Source: a virus (taxonomy: Duplodnaviria; Heunggongvirae; Uroviricota; Caudoviricetes). Taken from it: DNA of 64,000 bases. Under the pieces are notes generated by a model, which saw nothing but the letters and a program-made list of their open reading frames with translations, was not told the origin of the DNA and did not search any database. Location of the stretch: the IMG/VR virus record IMGVR_UViG_3300034279_001376, positions 44,776 to 108,775 of that record, one strand, 5' to 3'. The translations under genes and the position numbers were made by a program. Below, piece after piece: positions 9,151 to 39,824 of the stretch (position 1 is its first letter; each line of letters starts with the position of its first letter).

Positions 9151-11832
9151 CTATTTGTTTACTACTGCTACTTTCAAATTATCTTTAGAAATTTTAAGTT
9201 TTGCAGCAATTTCTTCACGTTTTACTTGTAATTCCTCCCTTCTTAGAGATTCATTGGTGTCATTAGTAAGTCTGTCTGCTTTTAGTTTTTCCCTCATAGC
9301 ACCTCTTTGAGACTCAGCCTCTTTTGCTTGGTTTAAGACAGACATATAGTAATCTTTTTCTGCAAGATCTGCCTTTTTTAAGTTAAGTAATTCCTCAACT
9401 CCTGTACCTTGCCCAAATGAAGACTGGCCTACTACACGCATTTCTTGAATGTATTCATCTGATTCTATCTTGAGAAGTAGTTTTTCTTTTTCCCACGCTA
9501 ATTCAGAAGCCTTAATTCTCTCATCTGCTTCAATTTTTGCTTGTAATTGTCTTTGTTCGTTTTCTTGTTGCTTCTGGACTTCCGCTTGTTTTTTTACAGT
9601 CAAATCTTTAAGAGCAGAATATATGTCTGAAAGAGAATGAGTACTTAACATTTTAATCTTGTCTTCTAAATCAGCACCCATAGTATTGTCCCTACGTACC
9701 ATTTCTTTCATCTCTGCAATTAATAGTGCATCATCAAAACTTGAGGATGTGTAAACTCCTAACATGTAAAGAGGAAAATCCTCAGTAGTAGTCTGAAATA
9801 TTTGTCTTTCCCCCTCAGAGTTAAGATAAGAATCAGCAGTACTTCCTTCTTTGATTTTTAGATACTTGGTAATCTCTAGGAAAGTTTGCCAACCCTTTTC
9901 CATCATGGAATAATGGTCATCATACACCTCTTTGACTGCGTTTACAGTTCTTTGCACTCCTTGTGCTATTCCTGCTTCTGTTTCCTGAGGACTTATTTCT
10001 GAAAGGAATTGAGAAGTAATTCCTAAGACCGAATAGCACTCTTCTTTAATAGACATGGCCAATTGTACTTTTTGGGCAATTTCATCCATTCTACTCAAAT
10101 CCACTTTCTGACCAAACCCACCAGTGAGTTGACTTCCTCCTTGCATGTTAGAAGGAGAAGTGTCCACAGCACCAATACCTAAGTCACGGGCTGTCATTGC
10201 AAACTTTACAAGATTATTTTTGCCCCAAGAACCATCCATAGATTCAGAAGGAATAGCATTTTGGTTCATCACAAAGAATGGACCTATTTCAGTCTTTAGA
10301 ATTTGCATGATGCGATTCCACACAAAATTAAAAGCAATTTCCCATACTTCTGTTTTGTCCACAATCTGACTAGACTCTGAATACTTATTGGTAGTGGCTC
10401 CACCGTGTACAGGAATGTAAGATCCAAACCTTCCTATTTTTGGATCTGAGAGTTGAACTTTATATTTTTCGATGCTTAACCAAACATCATCACTGAGGTC
10501 AGGATTTGCATTCCGTGAGAAATTTAATTTCTGGACTCTGTGGAGTTCGTTAATATAAAATACTTCCACATGTTCACCTTCGAGAAGATATTCTGCTGTT
10601 TTTGGTTTACCCTTTAAATAAGTGGGCTTAAAGACTGGAAGGTATGTTTCATCCACTATCTTAGTAACTTCCTCTTCACCTACTCGGAAAGTGACTTTTT
10701 TCATAATACGTGGAATTTGCACGTACATATTCAATATCTCAACCAACCTTTCTCTGTATTCTTCTCCCCTGTGTCTGTGAGTAGTGTCTTCTTCTGTTCT
10801 AAACGCGAGATAATTTTGGATGTCTGCTTCTACTGGTTTCTTAGTCTCAAACTCAAAATTAGCAGCAGTCGTTGCTGTGAAGTTAGTACTGCCAAATCTC
10901 AAGTGTAATTTCTGAATGGTTTCTTCATTTAATTTATCTCCGAACCTTTGAATAATAGTTTCAGGAGCCTCATACTCGTACCACATAAACATGTAAGAAT
11001 GACTTACATCATCGTTGTGAGGACTTTTTAAATAGGCAGCATTTTCTGGTCTGATTACTTCTGGTCTTACTTCATCTTCTTTAAGATTAAGATGTAGGAA
11101 AGGTCTGTCATTAATAATCCGGTTTCTAAAGAGTTGTTTTTCTATGTCTGGCATATTAAACTTTCTTTTGGCGTTTTCCATGACATGATTGGCCCACTGT
11201 TCAATAGTTAATCTAAATTCTGTGTTGTAATACTTCTGAATTTTTGGGAGTTGTTGGAATATTTTAATTTGTTCCTCATAGACATCTGGTTGACTTTCAG
11301 GTGTAATCCCTTGGGCTTCTAGGTCTTGGTTAAAAAACTGCATAGCACTAGAAACTAGAAGGTTTCTAATGTCTCCATTCTTGCGGTCAAGTATGTCATT
11401 CTGGGCCTCTCTGTTTACAGCGAGTACTGAGTAACCTACTTTAGTCTTAGAGAGAAAAGAAGTTAACACATTGACTATTTTAGAGGTTAAAGGGAAAAAC
11501 TCTATTTCTTCCAATTCATCCTCTACGTTGTCCACTAAAGACAACTCCTCTTTTAAAGAAGTGTCCTTTAAATAATCTTTAAGGTCAAGAGTACCATTGG
11601 CTCTTTGTTGATTTTTTATAATTTTGTTACGATTTGCAGCAATGGTTCTTCTTCCTTTCTGCTCGTATATTAATACGTTCTGTTTTAATAACCTAAAATC
11701 ATTTTCTGTTTTATCTTTCTCAGTCAGAACCAACTTGTTTTCGTTGAACCTGTGTAATACGTGAGAAAAATCAGAACCTTTTTTGTTAGGTATTTTTATT
11801 TTTGGCCCTGTCTTTGACCCTAATTTGTCCAT
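9151..11832 (-). CDS. putative portal protein
   Basis: 893 aa ORF with ATG start, immediately downstream of the large terminase on the same strand. The long charged coiled-coil C-terminus is typical of large portals. Call rests on position and size. Confidence 0.55.
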   Translation of the reverse strand: MDKLGSKTGPKIKIPNKKGSDFSHVLHRFNENKLVLTEKDKTENDFRLLKQNVLIYEQKGRRTIAANRNKIIKNQQRANGTLDLKDYLKDTSLKEELSLVDNVEDELEEIEFFPLTSKIVNVLTSFLSKTKVGYSVLAVNREAQNDILDRKNGDIRNLLVSSAMQFFNQDLEAQGITPESQPDVYEEQIKIFQQLPKIQKYYNTEFRLTIEQWANHVMENAKRKFNMPDIEKQLFRNRIINDRPFLHLNLKEDEVRPEVIRPENAAYLKSPHNDDVSHSYMFMWYEYEAPETIIQRFGDKLNEETIQKLHLRFGSTNFTATTAANFEFETKKPVEADIQNYLAFRTEEDTTHRHRGEEYRERLVEILNMYVQIPRIMKKVTFRVGEEEVTKIVDETYLPVFKPTYLKGKPKTAEYLLEGEHVEVFYINELHRVQKLNFSRNANPDLSDDVWLSIEKYKVQLSDPKIGRFGSYIPVHGGATTNKYSESSQIVDKTEVWEIAFNFVWNRIMQILKTEIGPFFVMNQNAIPSESMDGSWGKNNLVKFAMTARDLGIGAVDTSPSNMQGGSQLTGGFGQKVDLSRMDEIAQKVQLAMSIKEECYSVLGITSQFLSEISPQETEAGIAQGVQRTVNAVKEVYDDHYSMMEKGWQTFLEITKYLKIKEGSTADSYLNSEGERQIFQTTTEDFPLYMLGVYTSSSFDDALLIAEMKEMVRRDNTMGADLEDKIKMLSTHSLSDIYSALKDLTVKKQAEVQKQQENEQRQLQAKIEADERIKASELAWEKEKLLLKIESDEYIQEMRVVGQSSFGQGTGVEELLNLKKADLAEKDYYMSVLNQAKEAESQRGAMREKLKADRLTNDTNESLRREELQVKREEIAAKLKISKDNLKVAVVNK

Positions 11833-11924: not shown

Positions 11925-14900
11925 TTATTTTCTTTTCTTAAAAGGAGAACCCATTTTCATTACTACTTTTTGCTCTCTTTTTACTCCGTTTTCTCTTACT
12001 TGTCTTTGCTCTTTTACTACTAGATTTCGATTGGTGTTTGATCTGGCTGCAATTAAGGCAAATGTAAATGCAACTAATCGGTCTGTGTTTAACTTAGGGG
12101 TGTATTTGAGCATCTCCTCTAGGAGCATAACATCTCTTAGTCTTGTAACTCCATACACGGGAGTTTTTTCCCCGTCTTTCATTATGTTAAGGATAACTTC
12201 ATCAACATAAGCAACTGCAAAATCTAAAGCCTTTTTTTTAAATTCTCCCTCCATCCTAATTCCTATTTCGTTTACTATGGTAGAATTGGGCATCCATTCG
12301 TTTAGAAGGTATATTTCTTTTCTTTTCATAAACATGTGCCCTAAGTCTTTTCCTATGGCCCATTCGTGAAAACCTGTTACGTTTGATTCTACTGCTATTC
12401 GAGCATTGTAATATTTGCAAAGGTTCATGCACGTTTCGTAAGTTTCTTCCCAAGTTGGATACCTACCTGTGTATCTGGCCACTGGAAAATCACTTACCAT
12501 TTGCCCATTAGCATTTACGTGAGCAGCCTTAAATATAACCACTGACATCAAAGACTTAGAAGTAGTGGTGTTGGTTTGTCTGATAGGGTCAATTCCTGCG
12601 TAATATAAACCCCAAGGTGGATTATCTATTGGTAGTTCATCTACTTCTACTACTCCTCTATTATCCTTAGTGGGGTCAACCTTTAGAGTTGAGATAGGTT
12701 TGTTGTACGAGATTTTGTGGGTGATTTTACTGTCAGTAACTTCCAGTTCTACTGTAAGAGGTTTATAGGTTTGACGAAGTAAAGTCTGGTGTTCTTTTAT
12801 GATTCGAGTGGGGAAAATATTATCCTCCCGGATAGCAAAAGCATCTTGAAGATTAAAAGGATGCTGAGATTTCCAAAGAATGTAATTGTCTTTTTCTCTC
12901 CTTTTTTCGTCTTCTAAGTTAAGATAGTACTTGGCTAATTCTATGTCTGAATTTCCATCCTTATCGTAACACTTAATCTGTTTACCATCAACACTTGCTA
13001 TATAATTCCAAAAGTCTGGGAAAAAGAAACAAATCTCTTCATCTGATTCTACCTCTGAGAATATATCTTTGATCCCTAAGAACCCATAACCAGAAGGATT
13101 GAAAGCAATGTTTTCTAATGGCCCACAATCTTTTAATTCACCCACGGCTCCTGATACTGTAATGTGCCCAGTTTTAACACCTCCCATTTTTGTGGCTGCT
13201 TCTGCAAACTCCAACACTTTGTCTAGGTTTGGAGCAATGCCTGCTTCTTCGTGAAAAAGATCAGTTATGTGACCACCTACTGCTTTTGCAGGGTTCTTTT
13301 TAGTGGTGGCTGCCACTAAACGAGATTTTAATCCTACCCATTTTTTCTTTGTGTTAACTGTACCTTCAATTACACTTCTTTTCTGTTCCCATTCTAGTCC
13401 TGCATCTGGTTCAAATGATCTGTACCAAGGAGTATGCTCATTTAGAAAGTTACGGTAGTTAACAGCAAATTTCCAAGAACCATTAGTGTTTACAAAATCT
13501 TCTTCATATCCTATGACTTTACAAACACTCTGCTTAACAAACCATAGTTTTCTCATTAACTTTGACATTAGTTTCAGTGTGTTATGAGTAAGTACATAGT
13601 CTTTAGTAATGTAAGTATGGCTAGGATGGTCAACTTCAATACAAGTGGACTCTTCTTTTCCAAGTTTTACTACATTAATAATACTGTTTTTTGTACGTCT
13701 TTCTCTGTCTAGTATTTGTCTGTATTTCTTACGCCTTAATCTAAACAACCTTATTTTATTTCCAATACGTACCCTCCAAAATATGTGGTCAGTTTCTTTT
13801 GCTGGTGGAAATTCACAACTATGAACTGGAATCCCCAAAGACCTGCATAATTCTACCACATCTGCTTGAAGTCTTTCGGATGTAGTCGTAAGTTGAATAT
13901 CATAACCTTGTTCAGAAATATACCCGTCTGTATCCATAAGCCCCTGTAATAAGGCTATCCGGTTTTCTACACTAGATTTTAAATAAACCTCTGGAATGAA
14001 TTTGTTGTAGCAAGTCGTACCTGTTAAACCTAACTCCTTTAGTTCTCTTAACAAAGGATTTACACCATATTGAGCGTTTACATATTTAGAATCTAAAGAT
14101 GTAAATCTTTTTGCATACATAATAGTGGCCCGGTAATGATTTTCTGCTTGTTCTCTTTCACCTGTATGGTAATCTTCTCCAAGGTCTTCAAGGACTAAAT
14201 CAAATACTTCTTGGTCTGCTGAGGTCAGCCTACATTGAGATTTGGTGAAAGAACCATCACCTAGTAAAGCACCCAAAGCATACGCAGGGATTGGCACAGT
14301 ATTCTCAGGATAAATAATGGGATCAATTTCCTCCACTCCATACCTATAACCTTTATACTCTTTTTTCTCCCCACTTTTTAAAGTTGCTGTTGCTTTATAA
14401 GTTATGCCTTTTTCTAACATTTGCTTCAAAGACAAAACTTTTAAAGTATTCCTTTCTCGCACCTCCCAGAGATGATTAATACCACATCTTACTTTTCTTT
14501 TGTCCAAAAATTCTATTTCGTAAACATCTTTTACTCCTTGTGGATAAACACCTATTACATTGGTTAACTTGCCATCTTTAGAATAAACTTTGTCTCCTAC
14601 TTTTAAATCTCCAATAGGTCTAAAACCATGTTCTGTGAGTACAGGTTCTGAATTAGGTTGTTCAAAGCCTTTCTGGCGGGCTTTGCAGACAGCAGAGTTT
14701 AGATCAGATAATCTAGCAATTTCGTCATACAAATAAAAATGGTAATCTCCATCCCATAATTCTGCAAAATCCTCCCTACCTTTTAATTTATCTACAATAG
14801 GAGTGTAGTTAAGATACCAATAAAAATCTCCGGGTAAATAAAACTCGTTAATGATTACACCTTGACCTATTTTTTTCTTCTCAAAAGCAAAATGTTCTTT

Positions 14901-15113
14901 GTATTGTTCTGAGTCTTCCGAGAAGTCACAATACCTTCCTGTCGTTTGGAATTTAGTGGCAGGTTCAACCCATAGATAAGTGTCATACAAACCATATTTA
15001 CCCGGTTCTTTGAACTGAGATTTTACGTATGCAAGAAACTCCTTGTCATTTTCGTAAATAGTGTATGACCAAACTCCATTTTTAAGAGTAGGTATTCGCT
15101 TTGTTGTAAACAT
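11925..15113 (-). CDS. terL: terminase large subunit (T4 gp17-like) interrupted by an intein
   Basis: 1062 aa. N-terminal ATPase region with ...CKARQKG P-loop remnant. C-terminal nuclease domain with a YAGIDPIRQ RNaseH-like acidic motif. The internal ~360 aa has hallmarks of a homing-endonuclease intein (see intein feature). Confidence 0.8.
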   Translation of the reverse strand: MFTTKRIPTLKNGVWSYTIYENDKEFLAYVKSQFKEPGKYGLYDTYLWVEPATKFQTTGRYCDFSEDSEQYKEHFAFEKKKIGQGVIINEFYLPGDFYWYLNYTPIVDKLKGREDFAELWDGDYHFYLYDEIARLSDLNSAVCKARQKGFEQPNSEPVLTEHGFRPIGDLKVGDKVYSKDGKLTNVIGVYPQGVKDVYEIEFLDKRKVRCGINHLWEVRERNTLKVLSLKQMLEKGITYKATATLKSGEKKEYKGYRYGVEEIDPIIYPENTVPIPAYALGALLGDGSFTKSQCRLTSADQEVFDLVLEDLGEDYHTGEREQAENHYRATIMYAKRFTSLDSKYVNAQYGVNPLLRELKELGLTGTTCYNKFIPEVYLKSSVENRIALLQGLMDTDGYISEQGYDIQLTTTSERLQADVVELCRSLGIPVHSCEFPPAKETDHIFWRVRIGNKIRLFRLRRKKYRQILDRERRTKNSIINVVKLGKEESTCIEVDHPSHTYITKDYVLTHNTLKLMSKLMRKLWFVKQSVCKVIGYEEDFVNTNGSWKFAVNYRNFLNEHTPWYRSFEPDAGLEWEQKRSVIEGTVNTKKKWVGLKSRLVAATTKKNPAKAVGGHITDLFHEEAGIAPNLDKVLEFAEAATKMGGVKTGHITVSGAVGELKDCGPLENIAFNPSGYGFLGIKDIFSEVESDEEICFFFPDFWNYIASVDGKQIKCYDKDGNSDIELAKYYLNLEDEKRREKDNYILWKSQHPFNLQDAFAIREDNIFPTRIIKEHQTLLRQTYKPLTVELEVTDSKITHKISYNKPISTLKVDPTKDNRGVVEVDELPIDNPPWGLYYAGIDPIRQTNTTTSKSLMSVVIFKAAHVNANGQMVSDFPVARYTGRYPTWEETYETCMNLCKYYNARIAVESNVTGFHEWAIGKDLGHMFMKRKEIYLLNEWMPNSTIVNEIGIRMEGEFKKKALDFAVAYVDEVILNIMKDGEKTPVYGVTRLRDVMLLEEMLKYTPKLNTDRLVAFTFALIAARSNTNRNLVVKEQRQVRENGVKREQKVVMKMGSPFKKRK
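13581..14651 (-). mobile_element. intein with LAGLIDADG homing endonuclease inside the terminase ATPase domain (approximate boundaries)
   Basis: Hint-like N-block (EPVLTEHGFRPIGDLKVGDKVYSKDG). Two LAGLIDADG motifs (LGALLGDGSF and LQGLMDTDGYI). C-terminal block ...YVLTHN followed by Thr (+1 extein residue). The N-terminal boundary is uncertain; Ser155 is a candidate first residue. Confidence 0.6.
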
Positions 15114-30951: not shown

Positions 30952-31146
30952 AACAGAGACGAAGTTTGTCTTATACTTCGGGTATAAGCAAACACCAGTG
31001 AGGTGCAAACACCCGTTTATCAGTTTCTACCCAATAGGTTGTAAGTGAAACTGTACTAGCCCCGTTCATATAGCAGACAATATGCTCCTCTTCTAAGGGA
31101 GTCACAGGGGTGCAAATCCTCTACGGGGTACTAAATTATTAAAATT

Positions 31147-32637: not shown

Positions 32638-32719
32638 AGAAAAGATCGGGTAGCAGAATGTAAATGCAGTGGTATGCAAGGTTTACCACGTTAGGTAAAA
32701 GGCAGGAATGCACCAATGT

Positions 32720-32752
32720 CTCTAACACTAAAGGTTCAAGTCCTTTCCTGAT
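32720..32752 (+). repeat. module copy 2: T-arm-like hairpin (aaagg-TTCAAGT-ccttt) followed by cctgattacgaaata
   Basis: Same architecture as copy 1 with a different stem sequence (compensatory) and an identical 3' 15-mer. Confidence 0.5.
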
Positions 32753-32784
32753 TACGAAATAATTGGAAAAACTTGTTAGATTTA

Positions 32785-32877: not shown

Positions 32878-32947
32878 AGGGAGTTAGCCTTAAAGTAAAG
32901 GCCAGTATTTGCTATACGGTATGCTGGTTCAAATCCAGTACTCTCTC
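32878..32947 (+). tRNA. tRNA-like element (possible degenerate tRNA, anticodon-loop reading UGC)
   Basis: Acceptor agggagt/actctct (7 bp including one G-U). U8. D-stem gcct/aggc. T-arm gctgg-TTCAAAT-ccagt. The anticodon stem has an A-G mismatch, the variable loop is only 3 nt and position 37 is a pyrimidine, so it is non-canonical. Confidence 0.25.
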
Positions 32948-33017
32948 CCGAAACGGGTTGGTAACCTAGGACTGCTGTAAAGTGGGACTAGGATTTTTAA
33001 CATTTAACATTTAAAAA

Positions 33018-38944: not shown

Positions 38945-39132
38945 TAGTCTTATGTGTTTACATAATGGCTAAACTTAGCAATACACCATTTAAGGACATT
39001 TTAGACTACCCATCTCTAATTCCAGATTATTTAAACCCTGCGTTTATATTGTATGGGGTAATGACAGTGGTTTATCACGTTGTTTATTGTGGTTCAATTA
39101 TTATTTTTCAAATTATAAATTTTCTAATTTAA
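38923..39132 (+). CDS. small membrane protein (paralog pair, copy 2)
   Basis: The table start 38887 is TTG. The ATG at 38923 gives MFLIFSIIVLCVYIMAKLSNTPFKD...ILYG..., paralogous to copy 1. Confidence 0.4.
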   Translation: MFLIFSIIVLCVYIMAKLSNTPFKDILDYPSLIPDYLNPAFILYGVMTVVYHVVYCGSIIIFQIINFLI

Positions 39133-39824
39133 TGAATCAATATCAAAAATTAATTGCAGCAGGTAAAATCCAAGAGTGTATTGACGCATTCCTTGAAATG
39201 GATGGCGATGTATATGAACAAACTATTCTTTTATCTGCTCGCTGGGTAAGGAATGAAGAATCAAATTTAAGGGGGTTACTTGATCCTAGGGATTATACTG
39301 TTGCAAGAAACCAAATTGTTAGGGCTTTAACTCATATAGCATTTGGTATAAAAGGTTTTAGTGTTGTGAGCACTACAAGTGCAAAGTCTGAAATTAGTAG
39401 TCAATATACTCGTGAAAATATTATAGTTTTAATCCAGCATTTTTCTCGAAGAAACCCAGAAGCATCTGAACAGTTTGAACAATGTCTCGCAGAGTTTGAC
39501 TCTTATCAAAAGGCTAAAACTCAATTTGCAGGGTATGATGCTACTGGCAGGCAAAGAGTAAAAATGCAGACTGATTTTGAAATTCTCTACAACAATGCAG
39601 TAAATGCTAAAGCAGATAACTTCGAGGAAGAGATCACTCAGATTCAAAAATTAATTTCTGCAAGGGTTCCAACTGTTCAAGATCTAACTACTGCTTACGC
39701 AATAGCATCAGGTTTGGGATATAGGAATTCAGAGTTAGAACGACTGCTTGAGTTACCAGTGCACACAAATGAAACTCGTATTAAAATCACCGAGGCTTTA
39801 GAAGCCTACTTAAAATCACTTTAA
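39132..39824 (+). CDS. hypothetical protein
   Basis: The table start 39087 is TTG. The ATG at 39132 (MNQYQKLIAAG...) forms a TAATG junction with the upstream gene. Confidence 0.5.
   Translation: MNQYQKLIAAGKIQECIDAFLEMDGDVYEQTILLSARWVRNEESNLRGLLDPRDYTVARNQIVRALTHIAFGIKGFSVVSTTSAKSEISSQYTRENIIVLIQHFSRRNPEASEQFEQCLAEFDSYQKAKTQFAGYDATGRQRVKMQTDFEILYNNAVNAKADNFEEEITQIQKLISARVPTVQDLTTAYAIASGLGYRNSELERLLELPVHTNETRIKITEALEAYLKSL

Follow-up and report, generated by a model that had tools for sequence, protein, structure and literature searches.

A predicted class 3 intein with a LAGLIDADG endonuclease domain in the terminase large subunit of a crAss-like phage

Class 3 inteins, as described by Tori et al. 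(2010; PMC2807308), have a non-nucleophilic first residue, a dispersed Trp-Cys-Thr (WCT) triplet and usually Thr or Ser at position +1. The Trp stands at B:12, two residues after the His of block B, the Cys at F:4, and the Thr at G:5, ahead of the penultimate His and the terminal Asn. The prototype is the DnaB intein of mycobacteriophage Bethlehem, and members of the class have been found in DnaB, Snf2, RecG and phage terminase large subunits (TerL), mostly in ATPase P-loops (Tori et al. 2010, PMC2807308). In this work, we analyse a 64,000-nt stretch of a phage sequence (positions 44,776 to 108,775 of IMG/VR record IMGVR_UViG_3300034279_001376; hereafter the window), in which the terL gene encodes a protein of 1062 residues. 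Residues Glu151 to Asn511 of this protein very probably form a full-length class 3 intein, which lies just before the final Ser/Thr of the Walker A motif and would splice via Cys491 to leave a TerL of 701 residues.

The window intein shares with the prototype and with the solved DnaB inteins of the class a non-nucleophilic residue 1, the WCT triplet, a terminal THN, Thr at +1 and a place in a phage ATPase, within the P-loop just ahead of the Ser/Thr of Walker A. It differs from its class 3 relatives at residue 1, which is Glu (as in 15 of 84 relatives) where Ala is commoner, and at residue -1, which is the Phe of K-x4-G-F-T rather than the Lys of GK[ST]. Furthermore, the structures solved for the class are those of mini-inteins, whereas the window intein is full-length, with a LAGLIDADG endonuclease.

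The TerL inteins of mycobacteriophages (Kelley et al. 2016, PMC5050341) are close in position, especially those at site TerL1-a, which is flanked by the penultimate Walker A residue and the nucleophilic Thr. A LAGLIDADG homing endonuclease is a shared feature; the position just before the final Walker A Ser/Thr is the "classic" P-loop site of that study. Also in common are the several alternative sites within one TerL family and the occurrence of both class 1 and class 3. However, the sites named for class 3 TerL1 inteins in mycobacteriophages are c and e and do not include the P-loop site (Kelley et al. 2016, PMC5050341), and the window's TerL belongs to the crAss-like family phrog_6681 as opposed to Terminase_1/6, in a Bacteroidota-type phage and hence with a different host phylum. 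For crAss-like phages, the excerpt of Yutin et al. (2021, PMC7886860) that bears on this subject states that the TerL of the Delta group 'typically contains an intein', and one TerL is shown there with two Hint-Hop inteins. The window is likewise a case of a crAss-like TerL with an intein; that excerpt gives no splice junctions or mechanistic class, both of which are worked out below for the window's TerL. In structure, the best match is PI-SceI, the VMA1 intein of S. cerevisiae, which has the same bifunctional architecture of a Hint domain and a LAGLIDADG endonuclease and whose endonuclease also aligns in sequence. It differs in being class 1 (Cys1, Cys at +1), in residing in a eukaryotic V-ATPase subunit and in sharing only 17% identity.

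Already known are class 3 inteins in the P-loops of phage TerLs (2010), inteins of classes 1 and 3 in mycobacteriophage TerLs (2016) and inteins in crAss-like TerLs (2021). What is added here is minor: the junctions are given explicitly, the intein of a crAss-like TerL is assigned to class 3, residue 1 is Glu, and residue -1 is Phe within a Walker A motif of the lambda-like kind. The window intein leaves current understanding unchanged. With it, class 3 inteins extend to one more group of phages, the crAss-like phages of Bacteroidota, which fits the phage origin and the P-loop preference proposed for the class; it also provides a class 3 intein, with splicing predicted, in a Walker A variant that has Phe rather than Lys before the insertion.

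The terminase gene and the boundaries of its insert

The open reading frame (ORF) at 11925..15113 (- strand) runs unbroken for 1062 codons. It matches the terminase large subunit family phrog_6681 of PHROGs in two stretches (E=1e-64), its sole tblastn matches among GenBank phages are distant Crassvirales TerL genes (24-28% identity), and a portal gene (phrog_6547; 9151..11832) lies directly downstream. By the homology of the exteins to crAss-like TerLs and by the adjacent portal gene, we assign this ORF to a crAss-like TerL that is interrupted by an intein. A megablast of the 15 kb around terL found no near-identical phage in GenBank; the identical 1062-residue protein is encoded on at least 15 metagenomic contigs. 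For annotation, the gene should be entered as an intein-containing terminase rather than as a hypothetical protein, with a spliced TerL of 701 residues and a predicted junction of ...KARQKGF-TLKLM....

The joined exteins served as the query of a TerL homologue search, which found 1031 homologues, 120 of them listed as cluster representatives. The closest intein-free TerL among the homologues, P0002, has 701 residues, is 94% identical and is exactly 361 residues shorter than the window's ORF, which the original prediction had taken to be about 360 residues longer than usual. Across the site, P0002 reads ...NSAVTKSRQKGF/TLKLMSKLMRKLWFV... (a slash marks the junction here and below), and the window reads ...NSAVCKARQKGF/EQPNSEPVLTEHG...DYVLTHN/TLKLMSKLMRKLWFV...; all of the insert-less proteins P0002-P0005 show RQKGF[ST]LK at the junction. 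Contigs L001-L003, which carry P0002, are colinear with the window's exteins (0 indels, 85.5% DNA identity), and relative to their DNA the window has an exact insertion of 1083 nt between TTT (Phe150) and ACN (Thr). The intein-free junction of L001-L003, ...CGCCAAAAAGGTTTT/ACGCTGAAATTAATG..., is the candidate target of the endonuclease; the junction DNA of L003 is ...CAAAAAGGTTTT/ACGCTGAAATTA.... No shifted junction reproduces the intein-free sequence. Because the intein-free proteins and DNA loci together fix both junctions, we place the insert at Glu151-Asn511 (Table 1). It is an in-frame insertion, falls at a site conserved in the host protein and is absent from the orthologues P0002-P0005 and from L001-L003. 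The alignment with intein-free homologues leaves residues 1-150 and 512-1062 as the exteins.

The original prediction had, with a hedge, started the insert at Ser155 (14651). Such a start would make it a canonical class 1 intein, in which Ser155 performs the N-O acyl shift and the spliced TerL keeps EQPN (residues 151-154) in its P-loop. Ser155, just upstream of the block A beta-strand, could indeed serve as a nucleophile, and insert position 5 is Ser in 8 of the 10 TerL inteins at the same site. In the remaining 2 of the 10, however, this position is Asp. EQPN is also absent from the intein-free homologues, including the one that is 94% identical, and their junction is RQKGF/[ST]LK. In addition, the alignment to 6RIX, a solved class 3 intein, puts Glu151 at intein residue 1, and the related family starts with [AES]QP right after the GK of Walker A. 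We therefore consider a class 1 intein starting at Ser155 to be barely conceivable, and the start is moved to Glu151 (14663), 12 nt or four codons upstream, with EQPN inside the insert. This shift leaves the intein without an N-terminal nucleophile and hence points to class 3, which the original prediction had missed, instead of a canonical Ser1 or Cys1 intein. At the other end, the predicted HN followed by Thr is found as His510-Asn511/Thr512, and the boundary at 13581 was exact.

Two other explanations of the extra segment were rejected. It is not a native terminase domain, as the insert is missing from the 94%-identical orthologue, and it is not a group I or group II intron, as the reading frame is continuous and no Rfam match falls in the gene. 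The GC content of the intein (35.4%) compared with that of the exteins (36.7%) gives no compositional sign of a recent foreign origin.

The Walker A motif of the intein-free TerLs is K-[AS]-R-Q-K-G-[FYML]-[ST]. Its spacing is matched by K-x4-G-[YF]-[ST] in the segment VVKSARVGYS of lambda gpA, translated from gene A. We take VVKSARVGYS to be the deviant Walker A motif of lambda terminase, with the functional Lys at its first position; a literature search for 'KSARVGYS' gave no paper. On this comparison, KARQKGF/T is a deviant Walker A motif of the lambda type, which the intein divides immediately before its final Ser/Thr, and the P-loop remnant KARQKG that had been noticed earlier is present at residues 144-149. 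With the intein in this position, Thr512 doubles as the predicted splicing nucleophile and as a Walker A residue. The earlier view that a LAGLIDADG intein interrupts the P-loop of the TerL ATPase domain is borne out.

Class 3 signature and the predicted splicing route

With Glu as residue 1, the canonical N-S or N-O acyl shift by Cys1 or Ser1 is impossible. The insert has no Cys, Ser or Thr at this residue, carries a WCT triplet made up of Trp216, Cys491 and Thr509, and is followed by Thr512 at +1. Its blocks A, B, F and G align to those of solved inteins, and it ends in Asn, as expected of a Hint intein.

Ten of the 120 listed TerL homologues have an intein at the window's site. These inteins are 39-56% identical to that of the window. 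In all ten, the first residues are EQP or AQP, the block F Cys, HLW and THN are kept, and +1 is Thr or Ser. When the intein by itself was searched against the database, 253 matches were obtained at E≤1e-10, the best 120 of which (30-42% identity) were aligned to the window intein. These 120 relatives occupy Walker A loops of PhoH, DnaB, Terminase_6, AAA_30 and other P-loop NTPases, with the typical pattern GxxGxGK/[AES]QP...THN/[TS]. The block B His and Trp are present in 120/120, and the block F Cys and block G Thr in 113/113 of those covering these positions. The full THN is found in 112 of the 113 that cover block G, the exception being P0129 with TSF. Residue 1, aligned in 84 relatives, is Ala in 54, Glu in 15, Ser in 10, Asp in 3 and never Cys, while the +1 residue is Thr in 93 relatives and Ser in 18. 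Finally, an alignment of 50 sequences (A1) has 18 invariant columns, among them His214, Trp216, Cys491, Thr509, His510, Asn511, Gly287, Asp394, Asp396 and Gly397.

When a mini-intein version of the sequence is compared with the PDB, the best matches are the class 3 inteins MchDnaB1 (6RIX/6RIY) and MsmDnaB1 (6BS8) and the engineered gp41-1_WCT (6RIZ). Residues His65/Trp67, Cys124 and Thr143-His-Asn of 6RIX fall on His214/Trp216, Cys491 and Thr509-His-Asn of the window intein, and its chain position 1 falls on Glu151. The Pfam Hint models remain below their gathering thresholds at residues 158-226 (20.9 versus 32.1 and 12.8 versus 28.4), and the Hint assignment consequently relies on the PDB sequence matches and the structure model. 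With these, the Hint element claimed in the original prediction holds.

From the class 3 literature we infer that the intein is active in splicing, and the order of the chemical steps would be as follows. Cys491, activated by His214 and Trp216, would attack the Phe150-Glu151 peptide bond to form a thioester-branched intermediate, from which the N-extein would be passed to the side chain of Thr512. Cyclisation of Asn511 would then release the intein, and an O-to-N acyl shift would produce a native Phe150-Thr512 peptide bond and hence the 701-residue TerL with an intact P-loop.

Several points weigh against this assignment. Tori and Perler note that the class 2 route is in principle open to an intein that bears a class 3 signature, and that only mutation of the block F Cys discriminates between the two. 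A WCT triplet engineered into a class 1 intein is insufficient for splicing, so that the triplet alone is no guarantee of activity. Residue -1 is Phe and not the usual Lys. Moreover, the mismatches between the window's exteins and L001-L003 are spread roughly evenly at 85.5% identity, with no obvious co-conversion tract, and any recent homing into the window's own lineage is thus hypothetical. By the class 2 route, the nucleophile acting directly on the Phe150-Glu151 bond would be Thr512, with no more than a supporting role left for Cys491. We nevertheless hold this route to be very unlikely here, given that the block F Cys is absolutely required in every WCT intein tested (MP-Be DnaB, Msm DnaB-1 and Mle DnaB, together with Bvi IcmO) and is invariant in all relatives that cover the position. 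A class 3 intein acting via Cys491 is the reading that we retain.

A further cysteine, Cys210 (14484-14486, - strand), stands four residues before the block B His and is conserved at 90% or more in the 50 related inteins. It is outside the published WCT signature; it may pair with Cys491 in a disulfide or in binding a metal.

Table 1. Position of the predicted intein, its exteins and its signature residues in the window
Feature	Position	Strand	Basis
N-extein, residues 1-150, ending K144-A-R-Q-K-G-F150	14664..15113	-	Colinear with P0002 1-150
Deviant Walker A motif, first seven residues (KARQKGF); Thr512, the eighth, lies across the intein	14664..14684	-	Intein-free homologues
Predicted intein, Glu151-Asn511 (361 residues, 1083 nt), Hint domain with inserted LAGLIDADG endonuclease	13581..14663	-	DNA insertion, Pfam, structure model, fold matches
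Intein residue 1, Glu151, non-nucleophilic; block A starts EQP	14661..14663	-	Intein-free alleles; EQP/AQP in all 10 TerL inteins at the site
Block B, His214-Leu215-Trp216 (B:10 His, B:12 Trp; context INHLW)	14466..14474	-	Invariant; aligns with His65/Trp67 of MchDnaB1 6RIX
LAGLIDADG motif 1, LGALLGDGSF, residues 280-289, acidic Asp286	14247..14276	-	G281, G285, D286 and G287 invariant or at least 90% conserved in 50 inteins
LAGLIDADG motif 2, LQGLMDTDGYI, residues 389-399, Asp394 and Asp396	13917..13949	-	D394, D396 and G397 invariant; aligned to LAGLIDSDGYV of PI-SceI
Block F, Cys491 (F:4; context STCIEV), predicted first nucleophile and first branch point	13641..13643	-	Invariant; aligns with Cys124 of 6RIX and the catalytic Cys of 6BS8
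Block G, Thr509-His510-Asn511 (G:5 Thr, penultimate His, terminal Asn)	13581..13589	-	THN conserved; numbering per Tori et al. 2010
+1 residue, Thr512, first residue of the C-extein and Walker A Ser/Thr	13578..13580	-	Thr/Ser in all inteins at the site and in intein-free homologues
C-extein, residues 512-1062 and stop, rest of the ATPase domain and nuclease domain	11925..13580	-	phrog_6681 match 512-1051; colinear with P0002 151-701

Endonuclease domain, mobility and consequences for packaging

Both LAGLIDADG motifs named in the original prediction are present (Table 1). Pfam matches to LAGLIDADG_3 (residues 385-457; 35.9 bits versus a cut-off of 22.5) and Hom_end (residues 373-431; 25.1 bits versus 21.1) cover this part of the protein. 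An AlphaFold2 model of the intein, built on alignment A1, has a mean pLDDT of 92.3 and a pTM of 0.91. Its top Foldseek matches in the PDB are full-length inteins, namely PI-SceI (E=2e-19, TM 0.68) followed by TliVMA and PhoVMA. Lower matches comprise the free-standing LAGLIDADG enzymes I-DmoI and I-Tsp061I, as well as mini-inteins, including class 3 ones. The acidic residues Asp286 and Asp396 are conserved, and the model matches PI-SceI, I-DmoI and I-Tsp061I, as expected for the alpha-beta-beta-alpha-beta-beta-alpha pseudo-dimer fold of such enzymes. In the model, the architecture is that of a Hint domain with an inserted two-motif LAGLIDADG homing endonuclease.

At the DNA level, such an enzyme, if active, would cut intein-free terL at the site during co-infection, and repair would copy the intein in (homing). 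Two kinds of comparison speak for an element that is mobile or was so recently. First, TerLs that are nearly identical differ in whether they contain the intein. Between P0005 and P0013, 14 of 741 extein residues are different, 8 of them at positions 108-154, directly upstream of the site, a range picked after the data had been seen. This cluster suggests a co-conversion tract, as expected from homing, and supports cleavage at the site only indirectly. Second, intein and extein identities are uncoupled; for P0013 they are 66% in the exteins and 40% in the intein, and for P0073 they are 45% and 54%, respectively.

On L001-L003, positions 1-1164 hold a gene with a GIY-YIG nuclease match, located approximately 5 kb upstream of terL, which is possibly a free-standing homing endonuclease.

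The conservation of these domains also bears on whether the insert might be a decayed, splicing-dead element, with terL as a pseudogene, or with the 361 residues tolerated in the P-loop, or with a dead endonuclease. Dead inteins do exist; the Arthrobacter Arth_1007 intein is reported to be a pseudogene. In the window, however, the ORF is intact over 1062 codons, and all catalytic residues of the splicing and endonuclease domains are kept and are invariant across relatives that are 30-56% identical. The identical protein also occurs on at least 15 contigs, TerL is essential, and an insertion of 361 residues inside Walker A is unlikely to be tolerated. A dead insertion is, in our estimate, extremely unlikely, and we continue with an intein that is predicted to splice.

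With an extra 361 residues in the ATP-binding loop, the precursor should be inactive. Given that the loop is split in the precursor, packaging should depend on splicing, as the original prediction had also supposed. It is conceivable, if unlikely, that splicing acts as a conditional post-translational timer or sensor for DNA packaging. Cys491 and Cys210 could, for instance, form a reversible disulfide or a metal site and thereby hold TerL inactive until a given redox state is reached. A mycobacterial class 3 DnaB intein has been reported to be an oxidative-stress sensor. In a weaker variant of the same idea, the Phe(-1)/Glu(1) junction, unusual and set in a deviant Walker A motif, could tune the rate of splicing.

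Other TerL inteins and further features of the window

The cultured crAss-like Bacteroides phage DAC15 has a TerL with an ordinary Walker A motif, TRGAGK/S, and a class 3 intein at the equivalent place, with the pattern AHP...HLW...KCITV...THN/S. Its gene (L004 1249-4581, corresponding to NC_055832.1 9429-12761) is labelled 'DarB-like antirestriction' in RefSeq and hypothetical protein in GenBank, and the former label is probably a misannotation.

Inteins are carried by 23 of the 120 listed TerL cluster representatives and fall at three or more further sites besides that of the window (P0032, P0033, P0039, P0042, P0056, P0061, P0071, P0074, P0088-P0090, P0094 and P0095). In P0042, a Cys1 intein is located three residues upstream in the P-loop, KKRQ/C...HN/CGYS. 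A second further site is found just before the Walker B-like DLFHEE, with KAVGGx/C...THN/C or S, and a third near the C-terminus, with LNTDR/C...HN/C.

Elsewhere, the window encodes a family A DNA polymerase and helicases. Between tRNA-Arg(tct) (31059-31131) and tRNA-Ala(tgc) (32878-32949), there is a 111-nt Rfam tRNA match at 32644-32754 (+ strand; 36.6 bits versus a gathering score of 29), for which ARAGORN makes no call, its intron mode included; the match may represent an atypical tRNA or an interrupted one. Finally, an ORF of 245 residues at 39087-39824 (+ strand) matches Pfam EAD11 (Effector-associated domain 11; 49.6 bits versus a cut-off of 26), a domain that is unusual for the replication-module region of a phage.

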